DNA of 64,000 nt from an uncultured Candidatus Saccharibacteria bacterium. GTDB lineage: Bacteria > Patescibacteriota > Saccharimonadia > Saccharimonadales > CAZDBS01. The stretch covers positions 3,422 to 67,421 of the forward strand of contig CAZWNK010000001.1 of assembly GCA_964635445.1 (NCBI GenBank), given 5' to 3'. The notes under the pieces were generated by a model. It was not told where the DNA came from, did not search any database, and saw only the letters and a program-made list of their open reading frames with translations. Both the position numbers and the translations under genes were made by a program. How positions within the stretch are numbered: position 1 is the stretch's first letter; every line of letters starts with the position of its first letter. Shown here piece by piece: positions 4,201 through 54,862 of this stretch.

Positions 4201-5114
4201 GGTAAGACGGTGATGCACATGCTCGATGGCTCGATGCCTGCGCGGTGCATGCTTTCCAAAATCTTGAGCCGCTTCATAGCCTTTTTCTTGCGTTGGCCTT
4301 TGGTGTTTTCAACTTCTTCATTGAGCTGTTTGATGAGCTCTGGCAACTCGATCGTATCCAACATAGCTTTGAGTGCGGTACCACCCATGCCTACTTTGAT
4401 GAGGTCTTGGACCTCTTCAGGCAAGTTACGGTACTCAGCTTCGCTGATAAGTCGGAATTGTTCGAGATTTTGGAGTTGTGTCTTGCGCTCATTGTAGCTA
4501 TCCATGACTTCGCCGAGCTCTTTTGTCTGAGCTTCTGCAAGTGCTTTAGGATTCGCGTCCTCTTTTTCAGCTTCAGCTTTGTAGCGAGCTTCGATAGCTT
4601 CTTTGGCGTGTGCACTCTCGGCCTCGATATCTGCAAGCATTTGGTCACGCTTCTCGGTATTCACCGTCATGATGACGTATGATGCAAAGTAAGCAATACG
4701 CTCGAGGTTCTTGACTGTCATGCCAAGTAAAAGGCCGATCGCACTCGGTGTACCACGAAGGAACCAAATATGAGCGACAGGTGCGGCCAAACTAATATGA
4801 CCCATGCGCTCTCGTCGGACGATCGAGCGTGTGACGAGCTCACCGTTTTTGTCGACGGCTGCTTCTCGGCTACGAAGGCCTTTGTATTTGGCATCATGTG
4901 GGTTGATATCTTTTTGTGGTCCAAAGATTTTTTCGCAGAACAAACCATCTCGCTCAGGCTTCTGAGTTCGGTAGTTGATAGTTTCTGGTTTGGTCACTTC
5001 ACCGTACGACCAGTTCAATATATCTGTTGGACTGGCGACTGCGAGGCGTACTGCATCGAAATCAGCGATATTTGTACTGTGCGAAAACTTACGCATTATC
5101 GATGTCCTCCTCAA
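1284..5114 (-). CDS. rpoC: DNA-directed RNA polymerase subunit beta'
   Basis: 1276 aa with the [12 protein letters not shown] catalytic Mg motif. Immediately downstream of rpoB with a 26-nt overlap. Confidence 0.97.
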
Positions 5115-8100
5115 TTTCGTTAGCTATTACGTCATCCGTCACATCATCTGGCAATCCAGAATCACCTGCGTCATCATCGAGTACGAAGTCATCGTTGACG
5201 ATGCCCGCGCTGACACCAACTGCCTGTTGATCATCTGGCATATCGACACCTGCTGGGTGTGTTGCTTCATTGTGGATGTTTTCGGCGAGAAGTTTCTCGG
5301 CGTCTATCGCTGCTTGACCATGCTGGTCAACAAGATCGACTTTGAGGCTGAGGCCTTGAAGTTCCTTCACGAGCACGTTGAACGACTCAGGAACCTGCGG
5401 ACCCTGAATATCAGTGCCTTTGATGATCGACTCATACGCCTTGGAGCGTCCGTATACATCGTCGGACTTGAGTGTCAGCATCTCTTGAAGTGTATATGCA
5501 GCACCGTATGCTTCGAGTGCCCATACCTCCATCTCTCCGAAGCGTTGACCACCGTTTTGCGCCTTACCACCGAGAGGTTGCTGTGTGACCATCGTGTATG
5601 GTCCAGTTGAGCGGGCATGAATCTTGTCTGCAATCATGTGATGCAGTTTGATCATGTACATGTTGCCGACTGTCGTTCGTTCAGCGAACGGTTCACCGGT
5701 ACGGCCGTCATAGAGTTGTGCCTTACCATCGGTATCACGACCTGCTTCTGCGAGCAGCTCTTTGATCTTCTCAGTTGAGACGCCATTAAATGGTTCTGTG
5801 ACAACTTTCATACCAAGAGCACGTGCAGCCATACCCAAGTGGGTTTCAAATAGCTGACCGATATTCATACGAGATGGCACACCAAGCGGGTTCAAAATGA
5901 CATCAACTGGTGTCCCGTCAGCCAAGAATGGCATATCTTCTACTGGTAAAATTCGAGCGACGACACCTTTGTTTCCGTGACGTCCAGCAAGCTTATCGCC
6001 AACTTGGACTTTGCGCATCTGAGCGACAAACACCTGGATCTGCATGATGACACCAGCTTTGAGCTCATGACCATTTTCTCGAGAGAAAATTTTCACGCCC
6101 ACGACCTTGCCATGCTTCCCGTTACTCATACGCTGAGAGGTGTCACGAACATCCTTAGCTTTTTCGCCAAAGATAGCGCGAAGCAGTCGCTCTTCACTTG
6201 AGAGCTCTTGTTCACCTTTTGGCGTGATTTTTCCGACGAGAATATCACCCGGATGCACCTCGGCACCGATGCGAACAATACCGTTCTCATCAAGATGTCG
6301 AAGGCTTTCTTCTGAGACATTTGGGATATCTGCAGTGACGACTTCAGGTCCAAGCTTGGTTTCGCGAACTTCAGTCATATAGTCGACGATGTGGATTGAG
6401 GTAAGCTCATCGTCCTGAACGATTCGTTGCGACAAGATGATGGAGTCTTCGTAGTTGTAACCACCCCATGGCATGAAGGCGACAATAAAGTCTTTGCCAA
6501 GTGCAAGCTCACCATTTTCAATCGACATACCATCGATCAAGACATCGCCTTTTTTGACCTTTTGGCCTGTTTCGACGACAACTTTCTGATTGATACATGA
6601 ACCTTCGTTGCTTCGGATGAAGTGCATCGGCGTGTATTTGACATCGCCATTTTTGGTACGCAGGACTACTTCTCGTCCTTCGGCCTTGACTACCTCACCA
6701 TCTGTTTCGGCATAGACTGCTTGGCCTGAGTTACGCGCAGTGACCTCTTCCATACCAGTACCGACGATTGGTGCTGTAGGACGAAGGAGTGGTACGGCCT
6801 GTTTCTGCATGTTCGAACCGGTCAGAGCACGGTCCACACGGTCCTTCTCGATGTATGGAACAAGCGCAGCAGTTGAGCCCAAAATCTGAAGATTGGAGGC
6901 GTCCATGTGCGTTACTTGGTCCGTATCAACCTGTCCAGGGCGGAGTTTGATACGAGCACTGACACGAGATTCGACAAAAGAGCCGTCATCTTTTAGCTGA
7001 TTACCAGCTCCTGCGATGACAGCATTTTCTTCTGCTGCTGCATCGAGATACTCGATCTCGCCAGTTACTTTGCCTTTGACAACCTTGCGATATGGCGATT
7101 CGACAAATCCATATTCATTGATACGAGCATAACTACCGAGATTGAGCACGAGACCGATGTTTGGTCCTTCTGGTGTTTCTACGGCGCAGATTCGACCATA
7201 GTGTGTGGCGTGAGCGTCACGAACCTCAAATCCGGCTCGTTCTCGTGAGAGACCACCTGGACCAAGTGAGCTAAGACGTCGTTTGTGCGAGAGCTCAGAG
7301 ATTGGGTTGGTCTGCTCCATGAACTGACTCAGCTGCGAGCTAGCAAAAAACTCTCGAACTGCTGCGACAATCGGTCGAGCATTGATGAGCTGGCCTGGTG
7401 TGACAGTTTCGATATCACTCATCGACATGCGATCTTTTGCATTGCGCTCCATGCGGAGGAGTCCGATACGGAATTGTCGCTGTACGAGTTCGCCAACGAG
7501 TTTGACGCGGCGATTAGCGAGACTGTCGATATCATCAGGTTCTTCTTGGGTATTATTCAGTCGGATGATTTCAGCAATGATCGCTTTGAGATCGTCGAGT
7601 CGCATAACTCGATTTTCTGTAGTATTTGGCACATCTAGTGCGAGTCGCTTGTTGATCTTATAACGACCGACTCGAGAGAAGTCGAAACGCTTGAAGTTGA
7701 AGAACATGTTTTCGATAAGGCTACGAGCGTTATCGACAGTTGCGAGATCACCAGGTCGGAGACGACGATAGACTTCGATCAAAGCATCGCTGTTACCTTT
7801 TGATGGATCCTTTTCGATAGTTGCGTTGATGTACGAGACTTCGCCGGTATCAACGTCTTTGAATAGTTCTGTGAGCGCAGTATTTGTGCTAACACCGAGC
7901 GCGCGGAGTAGCGTAGTGACCGGGATTTTGCGTCGTCGGTCGATTTTGACATACATAGCGCCATTGGATGAGGTCTCAAACTCCAACCATGCACCACGGC
8001 CAGGAATTACCTTCGCCCCGTAGAGCAAACGTGAACCGCTCGCCTCAGCAGTGAAAAATACTCCTGGGCTACGGATCAACTGAGACACGACTACACGATC

Positions 8101-34562: not shown

Positions 34563-34594
34563 TTTTCGCACTTTTGACAGCAAAAGTGCGAATG
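34563..34594. repeat. Palindromic hairpin GGTTTT-CGCACTTTTG-acag-CAAAAGTGCG-AAT, 3' of rplS (family copy 1)
   Basis: Perfect 10-bp stem. A second copy at 48691-48726 has a covarying stem. A further hairpin (CCAGCTTTAGCTGG) follows. Confidence 0.5.
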
Positions 34595-48690: not shown

Positions 48691-48726
48691 GGTTTTGCAC
48701 ACTTTTGACAGCAAAAGTGTGAATAG
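48691..48726. repeat. Palindromic hairpin GGTTTT-GCACACTTTTG-acag-CAAAAGTGTG-AAT, 3' of uvrB/NUDIX (family copy 2)
   Basis: Homologous to 34563-34594 with a compensatory G-C to A-T change in the stem. Followed by a second hairpin (GTCCGGGCGATACCGGAC). Confidence 0.5.
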
Positions 48727-51345: not shown

Positions 51346-52593
51346 TTATCCTACCACCCTGGCTAATTTTTCTGGTGCGATCAGGTCGTTGTCAAGCTGT
51401 TGGAGTACTTGTTGTTCTAGGGTCTTCATACTCATGTAGCGTGCAAAGATCTCATTCCACAGGCTTTCTCGGAAATGGTAAATGACTCGATCATGATACG
51501 GTGTCTTGGTAGAGTTAGAAATCGACACGTCCATCATATTGAATGCGACCGGGCGTTTCTCATACATCGCACCGACATAGTCGAGATCTTTCCAGAAAGC
51601 TAGTTCAGGATCGATTTCATACAGTACGTCCTCAGCTTTTCGCCAGTGCAGGTCTTCGGGTTGGACATGAGGTTCAAATATCTCTGGATGTCGCTCTTTT
51701 TCGAGCTTGCCAAAATAGCGCTGAATAACTCGCCAATGGATGTGCTGTCCAGCCATGACGGCAGCCGAAGCTGGATCAGCGATAAGGGTATCGACAAATA
51801 TTTGACCGAAATGAGAGGACGTACTTTTGAGTTTGAAAAAAGAGCTATAGAGTCGGATCTCGTTCATGTAATGAAACAGGAGCGATAGCGCGGTCATAGT
51901 GATCCCCGGGATTGTATCGACGGTGACTGGTAACATCAGAATCACGCCCAATTCTTTCAAGTGCGTAATGTTATGGCGCTTTTTATGCACGAATGCGTCA
52001 GCGATATCACCCCAGCGATCTTTCGGCATGATGACAATTTCTATTTTTCGTTTCTCGAAATCACTCGGCTTGAGCTTCTTGTAGTGCTCATCAAACTCAT
52101 TAAGCCACTCAGGTCCTTCGGCAAAACGCAGCGCGCCATAGATCTCGTACAAGCTTTCGTTTTTGATCATCGACTCGACCGACTGATATCCAAGTCGTTG
52201 CATGATCTGTGGCGGTGGCGTTGCGCGGAGCATGTCTCGAGCGACAGATTTCTTCAGCACCCAACAATCCTTGGGAATATCGACTCTATCTGCCGCTTTT
52301 TTGATCAACGGTATCAACTCTGCAACAGTGCTTTTGGATGAGCCTCCGATTTCTTTAGTGAGGTGCAGATCGTGCTTTCCTACCAAATGTCGCAATGCAT
52401 GATAGAGCTCCGTGCCAGTTGTATCTTTTGGATCGAGCCCCAACTCACGGGTCTTCATGTGAACTTTGCCGATGATTTCAGCAGTCAGACGCACATCGAC
52501 CGAAGTATTGCCCGACGCTTGCTCAAGTTGCTTCAAAGCCATAGAAAATAGTGGTTCTTTTGCTCCAAGCAAATCAGATAGAATTCGCGACAT
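51346..52593 (-). CDS. hypothetical protein (415 aa), no recognisable family
   Basis: Long ORF translationally coupled to the LOG-family gene (4-nt gap). Confidence 0.55.
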   Translation of the reverse strand: MSRILSDLLGAKEPLFSMALKQLEQASGNTSVDVRLTAEIIGKVHMKTRELGLDPKDTTGTELYHALRHLVGKHDLHLTKEIGGSSKSTVAELIPLIKKAADRVDIPKDCWVLKKSVARDMLRATPPPQIMQRLGYQSVESMIKNESLYEIYGALRFAEGPEWLNEFDEHYKKLKPSDFEKRKIEIVIMPKDRWGDIADAFVHKKRHNITHLKELGVILMLPVTVDTIPGITMTALSLLFHYMNEIRLYSSFFKLKSTSSHFGQIFVDTLIADPASAAVMAGQHIHWRVIQRYFGKLEKERHPEIFEPHVQPEDLHWRKAEDVLYEIDPELAFWKDLDYVGAMYEKRPVAFNMMDVSISNSTKTPYHDRVIYHFRESLWNEIFARYMSMKTLEQQVLQQLDNDLIAPEKLARVVG

Positions 52594-52969
52594 TACGTGT
52601 AGCCACCCTCGTTTTGGTTATGCTTATCTCTAGTATAACAAAGTGATGGAAGATAGAAACGATATATTGACGAAAATGACGAAAGGTACTATCATTTTGC
52701 TCAATTTCTGACGTTTTTCGTCGGGAGTACATTGACAATAGACGGACATGTAGACATGTGCTTTCTGGAGCGAAAGATTTGGCTTCAACAAGCGCATGTG
52801 TACATGCAAACAATCGGGATTGTGTAGCTAGACTCGAGCGGTCGAGAAGCTAAAATCAAGCGGACTGTCAATCCAAGTCTTGGGTTTGATCTGCTAAGGT
52901 AAGTCACGGTTCAGAAATAACCCTGACGATTTCCTGGGATCCACAATCCATCATCGTAGGTGAAGCATC

Positions 52970-53042
52970 GGCCCTGTACCTCAGTCGGCAGAGGACCTGT
53001 CTAAAAAACAGGAAGTCGGTGGATCAATACCACCCAGGGTCA
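52970..53042 (+). tRNA. tRNA-like sequence, Phe-type body with anticodon AAA and non-canonical T-loop (ATCAATA), no CCA; possible degenerate or pseudo tRNA
   Basis: Manual cloverleaf: GGCCCTG TA CCTC-AGTCGGCA-GAGG A CCTGT-CTAAAAA-ACAGG AAGTC GGTGG-ATCAATA-CCACC CAGGGTC A. Acceptor stem is 7 bp with one G-U pair. Confidence 0.4.
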
Positions 53043-53079
53043 CTGGATCTTCGGATCCTTGACGTAAACGCTTCACCTA

Positions 53080-53154
53080 GCGCGCTTGGCTCAGTGGCAG
53101 AGCATCACCTTGCCAAGGTGAGGGTCACGGGTTCGATTCCCGTAGTGCGCTCCA
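53080..53154 (+). tRNA. tRNA-Gly (anticodon GCC), 75 nt, CCA encoded
   Basis: Manual fold: GCGCGCT TG GCTC-AGTGGCA-GAGC A TCACC-TTGCCAA-GGTGA GGGTC ACGGG-TTCGATT-CCCGT AGTGCGC T CCA. Confidence 0.9.
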
Positions 53155-53173
53155 AGCAGCATCCGTGCTGCCC

Positions 53174-53259
53174 GGACTTGTAGCTCTTCGCTGTACAGCG
53201 AAGGAATAGAGCGTCGCCAACGAAGGCGAAGGTCGTAGGTTCGAATCCTACCAAGTCAG
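53174..53259 (+). pseudogene. degenerate tRNA-like sequence (Thr-like T-arm) with an 18-nt hairpin insertion in the D-loop, a 6-nt anticodon loop, a G1-A72 mismatch and CTA in place of CCA
   Basis: AAGGTCGTAGGTTCGAATCCTAC matches the tRNA-Thr T-arm. D-arm is GCTC[ttcgctgtacagcgaagg]AATAGAGC. Anticodon stem is TCGCC/GGCGA with loop AACGAA. Confidence 0.35.
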
Positions 53260-53261
53260 CT

Positions 53262-53836
53262 AGCTCGACCATCTCACTGGTTCCTGGCTCTCCCCCAGAG
53301 AGATGGTCGAGCACCCTCGTCCAGGTCGTCTTCATCGACCTCCCGATCGTCGCTCAGGCGACCTGGACACCCCGTTCCTCTCGTGGGATCACGTGAATCC
53401 GTCGTCACGCGTCATCTCACGAGAGGGACCAAGTGTAGTACCGGTGCTGCAGCTAGAGTGTTTGCTATCACTCGAAAGGCATTGTGCTCCATAGAGTCGC
53501 AACTATGTTGAGCTGGCTTGCTGCAGCACCATGCTTCACCCCGGGAGTGCCTGTGGGCATCGTACACGAGTGAATTCCTCCTCGTAAGGTGAATGAAGTC
53601 AATGTCACCTCGGTGCCCCAGGCACTCCCAAAGCAACGTACCGCGAGTACGGTTGACCACCTTGGTCCCTTCGCGCTACATTGCTTCACACGTATCCATA
53701 AGTGCATACCTTATGCTGATGAGCTGAAAACAGCGAAATACGAGTTAACAGAATCTAGAAGTCGGAATACAGAATCCAGAAATTGACTTGTAATAAATAA
53801 ACTTCTGGATTCCGAGATCCGGCTTCCGGCTTCTCA
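53262..53836. other. 575-bp ORF-free, highly structured non-coding region: candidate large structured ncRNA (strand undetermined)
   Basis: Five perfect long inverted repeats in series: 53266-53275/53298-53309; 53321-53328/53359-53366; 53377-53385/53418-53426; 53443-53453/53520-53530; 53544-53553/53619-53628. Only short overlapping ORFs with no coding signal. Confidence 0.35.
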
Positions 53837-54862
53837 TTAGAGCGCTATGCGCTCTATAGGCATATCGTGTAACTGTGTATCAAGTCTGATAATCCCTGGT
53901 TTCGCACCGACAACACCAACAACTGATGTTGAGTTGGCGCTTGCATAGGTGAGTGCCTTTTCGGTCGACTCGCCGCGAGCGATCATCGCCACAAACCCGG
54001 AACTAAACGCATCACCTGCTCCAAGTCGATCGACAACGGGGACGTCTTCATAGATCCCGGCCTTATACAGCGCTTCATGGTCTCGTGCGACGACCCCGTT
54101 CGGCCCATCAGTGATGACGACATACGGGATTTCGTGTGCTGCACGTGCCAGATCCTCCATGGATTCACCCTGGTACAGTTTTTGCATTTCTTCTTTGTTC
54201 AGCGACAGAACATCGATTTTGGGTAGAAGCATTTTCATTCTATCTGCTTGTTCCAGTTCATCATTGCCAGGATTCATCGCTATTTTCATACCCAATTTGT
54301 GAGCGGTGTTGACGAGATACTCCAGTACCTCCATATTCCCCGCCAAACTCGTAACGTACAGCCATTGCGCATGCAGGTGAGCTTCGGGATAGTCCGAGAT
54401 CTCGTGTGTATGCGCAGCTCCTCGGTAAATGAGGATCGTCCGTTCACCATCACCGTTGAGTAATATGGTCGAGTATTGCGTGCCAAGTGACTGATGATAG
54501 ACCACCCGTGAAGTATCAACATTATCTTCAGCAAGCGCATGGATGATATTTGTCGCCGCACTATCATGACCGAGCTTACCAGCGAAAGCAGCGTGGAGAC
54601 CAGCTCTCGCGAATGTCACTGCAGCGTTACTCGCACCCCCGCCAGTCCCAAATGTGATGCGATCGACTTCCAGTTTGGCACCGAGTGGAAACTGCTCGGC
54701 ACATTCTTTGGTCTCAGGATTACACACCGCAGAAATTGTCTCGCCCTGCAGATACACGTCCTGGGAAGCTGCTCCGATAGCGATGATAGACATGTCGGGA
54801 TGGTCCATAATGTTCAAGTTAAGCATAACAAATTTGCTACAATTATGAGTAATGTCATTCAC
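53837..54862 (-). CDS. PfkB/ribokinase-family carbohydrate kinase
   Basis: C-terminal GAGDAFSSGFV anion-hole/catalytic motif and an N-terminal GG motif. The start may be an internal Met. Confidence 0.8.
   Translation of the reverse strand: MNDITHNCSKFVMLNLNIMDHPDMSIIAIGAASQDVYLQGETISAVCNPETKECAEQFPLGAKLEVDRITFGTGGGASNAAVTFARAGLHAAFAGKLGHDSAATNIIHALAEDNVDTSRVVYHQSLGTQYSTILLNGDGERTILIYRGAAHTHEISDYPEAHLHAQWLYVTSLAGNMEVLEYLVNTAHKLGMKIAMNPGNDELEQADRMKMLLPKIDVLSLNKEEMQKLYQGESMEDLARAAHEIPYVVITDGPNGVVARDHEALYKAGIYEDVPVVDRLGAGDAFSSGFVAMIARGESTEKALTYASANSTSVVGVVGAKPGIIRLDTQLHDMPIERIAL

Follow-up and report, generated by a model that had tools for sequence, protein, structure and literature searches.

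A tRNA and structured RNA island with a predicted hammerhead ribozyme at its 3' end in a Saccharibacteria genome

Within a 64,000-nucleotide (nt) stretch of an uncultured Candidatus Saccharibacteria genome (contig CAZWNK010000001.1; hereafter the window), positions 53262-53836 form a block beside a tRNA gene that an earlier, sequence-only reading had proposed as a candidate large structured non-coding RNA (ncRNA). Our results suggest that this block is probably the non-coding 3' part of an accessory RNA island, carried as the cargo of a transcription unit whose 3' end would be made by self-cleavage of a hammerhead ribozyme. The earlier proposal holds insofar as the block is non-coding and structured, with pairing under purifying selection; it does not hold insofar as the block was likened to one ornate RNA of the ROOL, GOLLD or OLE type. 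The whole is a hammerhead-ended tRNA/ncRNA island, an unusual use of a known ribozyme and not a new giant RNA.

The island, 52594-53836, comprises 1243 bp of non-coding sequence, bounded by the start of a gene for a 415-amino-acid (aa) protein and by the stop codon of pfkB (53837-53839), both genes lying on the minus strand. Read along the plus strand, it consists of a promoter, a leader hairpin, a tRNA-like element (tRNA-like 1), tRNA-Gly(GCC), a second tRNA-like element (tRNA-like 3), a hairpin array, the hammerhead and a long hairpin. Its GC content is 58%, compared with 48% in the rest of the window.

Results

The hammerhead ribozyme

The sequence-only reading had overlooked a hammerhead core, CUGAUGA...GAAA, at 53716-53738 on the plus strand. 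Together with its flanks this core makes up a type III hammerhead ribozyme (53691-53742) with predicted self-cleavage between C53696 and C53697. Of its three helices, all present, stems I and II end in loops and stem III (CGUAU/AUACG) is open. Stem I is a hairpin at 53697-53715 and is followed by CUGAUGA (53716-53722), stem II (GCUG-AAAA-CAGC, 53723-53734) and GAAA (53735-53738), with C53696 as H17 and with A53738 and U53695 forming the A15.1-U16.1 pair. Both strands of 52600-54000 were scanned against Rfam with cmscan at E ≤ 10, and only tRNA, Hammerhead_3 and chance-level matches were returned. The Hammerhead_3 (RF00008) match scores 23.2 bits (E = 0.043 in a 1.4-kb search), below the gathering threshold (GA) of 48.5, which is a curated cut-off and not a biochemical criterion; none of 20 family loci reaches it, and the copy in L038, a more distant relative, scores 32.5 bits. 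The earlier reading had held that a significant match to a known Rfam family would make the block a known RNA, and with this sub-threshold match as the outcome of the scan, that holds in spirit only.

The exact 23-nt core, including stem II, occurs in 47 metagenome contigs. The family was gathered by the exact stem II pattern, which accounts for the invariance of stem II, and its breadth beyond that pattern lies outside the count. CUGAUGA and GAA are invariant in all 40 family members, partly as a result of how the family was collected. A stem I hairpin is correctly placed in every one of the 47 contigs, and all 40 aligned members have U16.1; of the 41 distinct representatives, only a degenerate copy in L023, which also has no stem III, departs from this. 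At H17, the 41 representatives carry C in 20 cases, U in 13, A in 8 and G in none. The stems are 4-9 bp long and unrelated in sequence, and pairing is nevertheless maintained: 97.1% of the pairing cells in the 40-member alignment are paired, against 70.5% in shuffled alignments and at most 48% when partners are slid. Cells with double changes number 197, against 53 after shuffling, and none of 500 shuffles was as high. Two-sided changes affect 6 of the 7 pairs of stem I and 5 of the 6 pairs of stem III.

With a covariance model (R1) derived from this alignment, the window copy scores 66.4 bits and is the sole match in the 64 kb; the score is partly by construction because the window copy is in the alignment. 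The model also found variants on which it had not been trained, in L012 and L041, with stem II GUCC-AAAA-GGAC and C at N7. In L001, the related locus described below, the ribozyme is identical except for a C-to-U change at H17 (98% identity). Membership of 53691-53742 in the hammerhead class is established at the level of sequence, and the ribozyme is, as predicted from its conserved features, a new member of that known class within a sub-family lying below the Rfam threshold. No second ribozyme was found in the island or the window with Rfam or R1; a CUGACGA at 52934 has neither a GAAA nor a stem III partner.

The hairpin array

The five consecutive inverted repeats described by the sequence-only reading were recovered by an inverted-repeat search at 53263-53629; the arms measure 13-27 nt and contain perfect cores of roughly 11-13 bp. 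The first, I4, forms a window-specific hairpin with an 18-bp stem (53263-53312; arms 53263-53280 and 53295-53312, 18 nt, 94% complementary). It is followed by I7 (53319-53368; arms 53319-53331 and 53356-53368, 13 nt, 92% complementary), which is conserved in L001, and by I2 (53367-53436; arms 53367-53393 and 53410-53436, 27 nt, 78%), whose sequence is conserved and whose perfect core pairs 53374-53386 with 53417-53429; the I2 stem is GUUCCUCUCGUGG/CACGAGAGGGAC and its loop contains the block UCCGUCGUC. In I5 (53443-53530; arms 53443-53456 and 53517-53530, 14 nt, 93% complementary) the outer stem is conserved, and I6 (53543-53629; arms 53543-53556 and 53616-53629, 14 nt, 93% complementary) is a variable domain of 87 nt. 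A further conserved hairpin, at 53631-53686, lies directly 5' of the ribozyme (minimum free energy, MFE, -22.8 kcal/mol; z = -3.9) and includes GAGUACGGUUGACC, a copy of a motif that also occurs in the leader.

The block as a whole is highly structured, as had been proposed. Its MFE is -256.4 kcal/mol, compared with -173.2 +/- 6.8 kcal/mol for 100 dinucleotide shuffles (z = -12.3; none of the 100 as good), and the minus strand also folds (z = -9.6). The claim that it holds no credible open reading frame (ORF) was borne out as well. The longest ORFs span 63-82 aa, 82 aa being the maximum, and none is conserved between the window and L001, where tblastx gave short matches in all frames, with stops. 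With no ORF common to the two, we rejected coding potential for the block. Two further independent assemblies of the same strain (L138 and L139, 99.9% identical) both contain the island, which excludes an assembly artefact. A repeat search found no further copies of the block hairpins in the 64-kb window, so that they do not form a dispersed repeat family, and GAATCCAGAA shows no over-representation. The block has no Rfam match to RNase P RNA, transfer-messenger RNA (tmRNA), signal recognition particle (SRP) RNA or 6S RNA and no ARAGORN tmRNA call, in agreement with the earlier scan by eye for RNase P, SRP and tmRNA signatures.

Conservation in a diverged relative

L001 is a locus from a Saccharibacteria metagenome-assembled genome and the sole related genome locus by pfkB (84% aa identity). 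Its island has the layout of that in the window: promoter, leader hairpin, tRNA-like element, tRNA-Gly(GCC), tRNA-like element, structured region and hammerhead. At four-fold degenerate sites of the 415-aa gene, the window and L001 are 33.6% identical, which amounts to neutral saturation, so that sequence which can still be aligned is under selection. The two islands align at 73-84% over hundreds of bases and have identical blocks of 9-16 nt in common. We compared 76 matched pairs in the helix flanking tRNA-like 1, I7, I2, I5, the 53631-53686 hairpin and the ribozyme stems. Among these, 67 are unchanged, 1 has a one-sided change, 8 have compensatory double changes (spread over four helices) and none is broken. 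The hairpin array is under purifying selection for RNA pairing, and the conservation in relatives that the sequence-only reading had named as a check is present in the form of compensatory change.

In individual hairpins, I7 has two compensatory double changes and no broken pair, and I2 has 12 identical pairs and one one-sided change. I5 has two compensatory double changes (GGUGC/GCACC to GGCAC/GUGCC). Three more are found in the 53631-53686 hairpin (AGCAA/UUGCU to AGCAG/CUGCU, GUA/UAC to GUG/CAC, and CGCGA/UCGCG to CGUGA/UCACG). The last of these is also where the earlier reading went astray in detail: the small helix GTACCGCGAGTACGGT (GTACCG...CGGT) that it had singled out is not the kept pairing, which is CGCGA/TCGCG (CGTGA/TCACG in L001). 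Two U-G wobbles in the hairpins, one of them in I7, are valid on the plus strand only. Several unpaired blocks are also kept in L001, namely UCCGUCGUC in the I2 loop, CUAGAG and CUCGAA in I5, GCUUCACC, and GAGUACGGUUGACC...GGUCCCUUC.

Other parts of the array differ. I4 is missing from L001, in which the I7 homologue comes immediately after tRNA-like 3, and I6 is replaced there by about 280 nt of other hairpins that cannot be aligned with it. The array is modular and variable and behaves as a stable structured cargo or trailer. Within it we also noted a perfect 10-nt complementarity, AGGGACCAAG/CUUGGUCCCU, between 53424-53433 on the 3' side of I2 and 53661-53670 in the apical part of the last hairpin; 6 bp of it (AGGGAC/GUCCCU) are kept in L001, and it may be a pseudoknot or may be due to chance.

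The tRNA-Gly and tRNA-like elements

The block had been described as adjacent to tRNAs, which is correct, and it lies on the same strand as well. The middle element is a canonical tRNA-Gly(GCC) with an encoded CCA (53080-53154; ARAGORN; Rfam 68.2 bits) that is kept in L001. Upstream of it, tRNA-like 1 (52970-53043) was called by ARAGORN and scores 60.5 bits with the Rfam tRNA model (GA 29); its anticodon loop is CUAAAAA ('AAA') and no CCA is encoded. The L001 counterpart (5708-5781, minus strand; 57.6 bits) has an 8-nt anticodon loop, CUAAUAAA. Compensatory changes relative to L001 occur in the acceptor, anticodon and T stems, and the anticodon is not conserved. The third element, tRNA-like 3 (53174-53259), which the sequence-only reading had called a degenerate tRNA-like sequence, proved to be a conserved cloverleaf with an Rfam tRNA score of 35.7 bits, above the GA of 29. 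Its anticodon loop has 6 nt (AACGAA; AACUAA in L001), its 1-72 pair is mismatched, and in the window a 22-nt stretch replaces the standard D-loop, with a loop-less perfect palindrome of 18 nt (I8, 53186-53203) found in the window only. The L001 counterpart (5500-5572) scores 51.7 bits and is given the anticodon '(ct)' by ARAGORN, and the T and acceptor stems again show compensatory changes. Between tRNA-Gly and tRNA-like 3, a short hairpin can be read from the sequence (GCAGCA-uccg-UGCUGC, 53156-53171); at its position L001 has a hairpin of other sequence, AUAGC-gaaa-GCUAU.

Judged by the Rfam tRNA threshold, both tRNA-like elements are cloverleaves, and neither combines a 7-nt loop, a conserved usable anticodon and a standard D-loop. 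Because of these abnormal anticodon loops and D-loop, we term elements 1 and 3 tRNA-like and do not count them as decoding tRNAs. A tRNA-Phe with A34 is very unusual in bacteria, and tRNA-like 1 therefore looks tRNA-shaped but non-decoding. A separate ARAGORN call of 'tRNA-Phe (aaa)' (1161-1243, 83 nt) is a false positive that lies at the end of a coding region and has no Rfam support at E ≤ 1.

Such features might also be expected if the island were the decaying, now functionless leftover of a tRNA array gained by horizontal transfer, in which two of three tRNAs have anticodon loops that look non-functional and one has an insertion in its D-loop. Against decay, the island still aligns over hundreds of bases at a divergence where four-fold sites are saturated, its ribozyme is almost unchanged, and its helices are kept by compensatory changes. 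Conservation at such divergence effectively excludes this explanation.

The same data bear on whether a single new large ncRNA, functional and comparable to ROOL, GOLLD or OLE, spans about 52960-53696 or just the 437 nt at the 3' end of that region. Such an RNA would fold into a specific three-dimensional shape and act with a specific partner, with tRNA-like modules built in and a hammerhead that only trims its end. The folding z-scores (-12.3 for the block, and -12.5), the retention of helices by compensatory change despite neutral saturation, the conserved unpaired blocks and a possible pseudoknot in the partly kept 53424-53433/53661-53670 complementarity are all in keeping with such an RNA, as are tRNA-like elements that retain the cloverleaf and not a decoding anticodon. 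ROOL and GOLLD likewise lie near tRNA islands, and GOLLD can carry tRNAs (PMC12286853). However, the region has no Rfam match to such an RNA at E ≤ 10, and no multi-helix junction or pseudoknot in it is backed by covariation. One hairpin is confined to a single lineage and another has given way to a domain of three times its length, which indicates that the array is not a single ornate fold of the ROOL/GOLLD type. The island is also found in two genomes only, and L038 has ORFs at that site. We therefore consider a single large ncRNA unlikely.

Flanking elements and the 3' boundary

A sigma-70-like promoter, TTGACG-17-TATCAT, was found at 52667-52695 on the plus strand (10 of 12 matches in a promoter scan) and would drive transcription of the island. 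In L001 the -35 box, the 17-nt spacing and a -10 box are kept (TTGACG-17-TACTAT), and in L038 the -35 region is still recognisable. Downstream lie a 5' leader motif, GAGTACATTGACAA (52725-52738), and a conserved leader hairpin (52747-52806; MFE -33.6 kcal/mol, z = -6.7). Between the window and L001, every pair of this hairpin is kept in an RNAalifold comparison, with one-sided and two-sided changes. The leader motif occurs twice in the 64-kb window, both times within the island, the second, diverged copy being GAGTACGGTTGAC at 53646-53658. The distance from the leader motif to the hammerhead core is 991 nt in the window, 1037 nt in L001, 1010 nt in L038 and 887 nt in L008.

On the other side of the cleavage site, a separate long imperfect hairpin (I1, 53750-53834; MFE -30.7 kcal/mol, z = -5.2) lies between the ribozyme and the pfkB stop codon. 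It is not followed by a U tract and is possibly a terminator for one or both of the convergent units. In L001 the place of this hairpin is taken by 101 consecutive N (4839-4939), which begin right behind the hammerhead, extend over the pfkB 3' end and probably mark a scaffold gap.

One could propose on this basis that the hairpins are tandem terminators or insulators without U tracts ('I-shaped'), acting in both directions between the tRNA promoter and the convergent pfkB, with the ribozyme as a fail-safe. This would suit the convergent arrangement, the similar stability of the hairpins on the two strands, the extra hairpin abutting the pfkB stop codon, and the strong GC-rich hairpin without a U tract that typically precedes the ribozyme in the family. 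It is nonetheless improbable. Six hairpins over 430 nt, with conserved loops, far exceed what termination needs; efficient early termination would leave the conserved ribozyme downstream untranscribed; and a terminator scan found no plus-strand site in the block.

The insertion site

In four relatives (L049, L050, L052 and L137), pfkB and the 415-aa gene lie about 30-50 bp apart on one strand, and this empty site identifies the 1.24 kb as an insertion. The insert is carried by the window, by L138 and L139 of the same strain, and by L001, and is absent from the further same-site relatives L136 and L137. Unrelated inserts with small ORFs are found between the two genes in L051 (1800-3000) and L136 (1756-2500), which makes this spacer an insertion hotspot. 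No target-site duplication is evident at the insert boundaries, and there is no integrase or transposase beside the island. In blastn searches of a phage collection, the island matched only through tRNA-Gly. The 14-mer GAGTACGGTTGACC has 83 matches in IMG/VR, none with wider similarity to the island, and we take them to be chance.

The hotspot could also be taken to mean that the palindromes act as DNA, as recombination or insertion scars or as the ends of a small mobile cassette, with RNA structure incidental. The unrelated inserts in L051 and L136 and the related insert in L038, the two palindromes specific to the window (I4 and the 18-nt D-loop palindrome) and the assembly break in L001 right after the ribozyme would fit such a history. 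The hairpins, however, are not repeated elsewhere in the window, they stand in strand and register with the tRNAs and the ribozyme, and the two wobble pairs suit plus-strand RNA only; with no mobility gene or target-site duplication seen either, we regard a role at the DNA level as very improbable.

Two further observations concern the surroundings of the island. The 415-aa protein (51346-52593, minus strand) has no Pfam domain. Its homologues across Saccharibacteria number 3177 at E ≤ 1e-20 (66-72% identity) and, where named, belong to Saccharimonadales or Saccharibacteria. Its gene almost always adjoins genes for a SLOG cluster-4 protein and uvrB, and it is a highly conserved lineage protein with no assigned function. 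Elsewhere in the window, a 31-nt palindromic element, TTTTCGCACTTTTGACAGCAAAAGTGCGAAT, occurs in two intergenic copies (34563-34593 and 48694-48724; 90% identical) that may be a shared operator or terminator.

The wider hammerhead family

The genes that flank the ribozymes in the 47 contigs are housekeeping genes (dnaE, a pilB-type ATPase gene, uvrC, uvrD, dprA, topA, truB and a sigma factor gene). Three of the contigs, L009, L032 and L038, are syntenic with other parts of the window, indicating that the hammerhead hosts are related chromosomes and not phages. The units run from a promoter and a 5' segment through variable cargo to a GC-rich hairpin and the hammerhead. In 19 of 32 loci, the 400 nt 5' of the ribozyme are more than 5 points GC-richer than the rest of the contig, the region upstream of the ribozyme is often strongly structured, and a strong hairpin (z < -2) directly precedes the ribozyme in 18 of 41 loci. 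Where cargo is readable it consists of one or two small ORFs that are mutually unrelated, and blastn of the upstream regions of the 47 loci against the block revealed no homology, so the family supplied no extra sequences for the hairpin array.

L038 occupies the same site as the island of the window. It has uvrB, SLOG, the 415-aa homologue, the island (1214-2474), pfkB and FBA in order, with the promoter region and the motif GAGTACTTTGACAA located 1010 nt 5' of the ribozyme. Its cargo is two ORFs of 105 and 124 aa. We regard this locus as decisive for the family context of the island. A comparable leader motif is present in L008 with one ORF of 191 aa. Taken with the ribozyme comparison, these loci point to a wider set of hammerhead-ended units, located in Saccharibacteria-like chromosomes, to which the island would belong as an atypical case, one whose cargo would be RNA and not a small ORF.

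In 10 of 35 loci, the approximately 12 nt 5' of stem III have a perfect complement of 9-13 nt located 420-1000 nt upstream, compared with 0-1 for control segments. The complement is at least 11 nt long in 7 loci, of which 6 are independent, L020 and L040 carrying one island. This upstream partner is found a short distance past a promoter-like sequence; in L038 and L008 the leader motif itself plays that part, with a compensatory C/U-G/A difference between the two loci. The papers searched gave no description of upstream pairing by a segment 5' of hammerhead stem III. We also noted that in L043, L007 and L031 the pyrimidine-rich segment 5' of stem III perfectly complements (9-11 nt) the Shine-Dalgarno region of the cargo ORF, at a partner 424-763 nt upstream of the ribozyme core; an mRNA 3' end made by the ribozyme could there mask its own ribosome-binding site.

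In the window, GUGAAGCA at 52960-52967 is the 5' strand of a candidate helix of 8 bp with 53682-53689, just 5' of stem III, and L001 has a pairing of 9 bp (AGGUGAAAC/GUUUCACCU). GCUUCAC, the complement of GUGAAGCA, is found at three sites (53070-53077, 53533-53540 and 53683-53689). A G-C to A-U change is matched at the first and third sites and not at the second, whereas the MFE structure of the window picks the second (53533). The third site overlaps the base of the 53631-53686 hairpin, and its offset in L001 is not exactly the same. For these reasons we treat the assignment of the long-range helix in the window as tentative.

Other arrangements were seen among the family loci. Tandem hammerheads, 414-1143 nt apart, flank small ORFs in L012 (696-748 and 1110-1162) and L041 (1499-1551, 2104-2156 and 3247-3299). 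In L012, stem III is the same in both copies and stem I almost the same, an arrangement that could permit excision and circularisation of the intervening RNA; nearby is a candidate primase-like (VirE-type) protein, judging from its sequence alone. In L023 (1410-1560, minus strand), a hammerhead copy lies 18 nt past a tRNA-Leu(CAG) that has a promoter-like sequence of its own, a second case of a tRNA adjoining a hammerhead. This copy is degenerate, without U16.1 and stem III (54.8 bits), and for that reason was not used as support for an association of tRNAs with hammerheads.

Discussion

Our results support a model in which the block is the 3' part of an RNA cargo in a hammerhead-ended unit. 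In this model, one plus-strand precursor would be transcribed from the promoter at 52667-52695 through the ribozyme. The hammerhead would cut after C53696 and leave the island RNA with a 2',3'-cyclic phosphate directly behind the conserved hairpin, so that self-cleavage rather than an intrinsic terminator would make the 3' end, and read-through RNA antisense to the convergent pfkB would be severed by the same cut. The cloverleaves would be processed by RNase P and a 3' endonuclease, freeing tRNA-Gly, and a hairpin-rich RNA of about 437 nt (53260-53696) would be left over. Our best guess is that this RNA is a stable, exonuclease-protected by-product or an insulator of a strongly transcribed tRNA unit.

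Several observations weigh against this model. The covariation in the array comes from one pairwise comparison, between the two diverged genomes that have the island. Neither GU counts nor the MFE of the 435-nt array distinguish the strands. The conserved loops (UCCGUCGUC, CUAGAG, CUCGAA and GAGUACGGUUGACC) and the kept non-decoding cloverleaves exceed what a passive trailer needs, and they leave room for a specific function. The exact ribozyme core has no match in IMG/VR, an absence that gives no help in explaining the origin of the island. Finally, thermodynamic folding of the ribozyme by itself is weak (-10.4 kcal/mol, z = -1.5), and the MFE structure of the long transcript pairs the 3' strand of stem III elsewhere. 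In that structure, a conserved UCGUA (52954-52958) located 5' of GGUGAAGC pairs with UACGA at 53739-53743; this pairing would rival the active fold and might represent an 'off' conformer.

Structurally, the nearest known class is that of the bacterial hammerheads, and the ribozyme has the hallmarks of type III hammerheads (RF00008; PMC3088659): CUGAUGA and GAAA, the A15.1-U16.1 pair, an H17 that is not G, and an open stem III. Like other bacterial hammerheads, it is intergenic and lies within a transcription unit, and the tandem copies in L012 and L041 recall those described as flanking small genes in prophages (PMC3088659). The role of the bacterial hammerheads reported by Perreault et al. 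in 2011 is still open (PMC3088659). Unlike them, the present family resides in Saccharibacteria-like chromosomes with housekeeping neighbours and not in prophages, and the window copy would end a tRNA/ncRNA unit and scores below the Rfam threshold. A full-text literature search for hammerheads together with Saccharibacteria, the Candidate Phyla Radiation or Patescibacteria returned nothing relevant, which is not proof of novelty.

The closest functional parallel is the theta ribozymes, which adjoin phage tRNAs and for which a role in processing the 3' trailer of the tRNA without host RNases has been proposed (PMC10879173). In both cases a small self-cleaving ribozyme lies 3' of tRNA genes. Theta ribozymes, however, are of the HDV-like class (HDV, hepatitis delta virus) and lie directly beside suppressor tRNAs in gut phages, whereas the window ribozyme is a predicted hammerhead in a bacterial chromosome, about 430 nt past the last cloverleaf, with structured RNA between. 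The island resembles ROOL and GOLLD in being several hundred nucleotides long, highly structured, non-coding and adjacent to a tRNA. It differs from them in having no covariance-model match, no conserved multi-stem core or pseudoknots and no phage or prophage setting, and in a hairpin content that varies between the only two homologues. No large-RNA family of Rfam (such as ROOL, GOLLD, OLE, HEARO or raiA) is matched at the gathering threshold in the window or at E ≤ 10 in 52600-54000, L001, L051 or L038. Spacer and trailer RNAs of tRNA operons offer another comparison, as in the 3' external transcribed spacer (3'ETS) of leuZ in E. coli and the tRNA-like processing of MALAT1 that yields mascRNA. 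There, too, a stable RNA arises from a precursor that contains tRNAs, with cloverleaves as processing signals; those RNAs are short or eukaryotic, involve no ribozyme and have their ends made by RNase E, P or Z only.

A broader reading, which we put forward tentatively, is that Saccharibacteria-like chromosomes contain a hammerhead-delimited expression cassette of a sort not described before, whose processed RNA would end in a 5'-3' panhandle, the window holding a version with RNA cargo. Such a cassette might open with a promoter and a 5' segment, continue with variable cargo and a GC-rich hairpin, and close with an 'anti-5'' segment, able to pair with the 5' segment, and a type III hammerhead whose cut falls immediately behind the 'anti-5'' segment, a composition we regard as conceivable without favouring it. 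Its 5' segment could, with similar reservation, often be a Shine-Dalgarno region or the motif AGUACWUUGACAAG. For the window version, a product of about 740 nt that comprises three tRNA-like domains and the hairpin array and has a function of its own is possible but doubtful.

In summary, the role of hammerheads in bacteria has been unclear since their discovery in 2010-2011, and the ribozyme of this island has no downstream gene to process and has to work on the 3' end of a tRNA/ncRNA transcript. A testable rule suggested by the related loci is that the ribozyme comes right after a hairpin and beside a long-range helix that would tie the 3' end to the 5' region. For annotation, 'hammerhead ribozyme plus structured tRNA-operon trailer' is the appropriate label for the block, and not 'novel giant RNA'. 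Our work indicates that ribozymes scoring below the Rfam threshold are being missed in candidate-phyla genomes, and that the lineage-specific, GC-rich islands of these small genomes can hold RNA instead of protein cargo.

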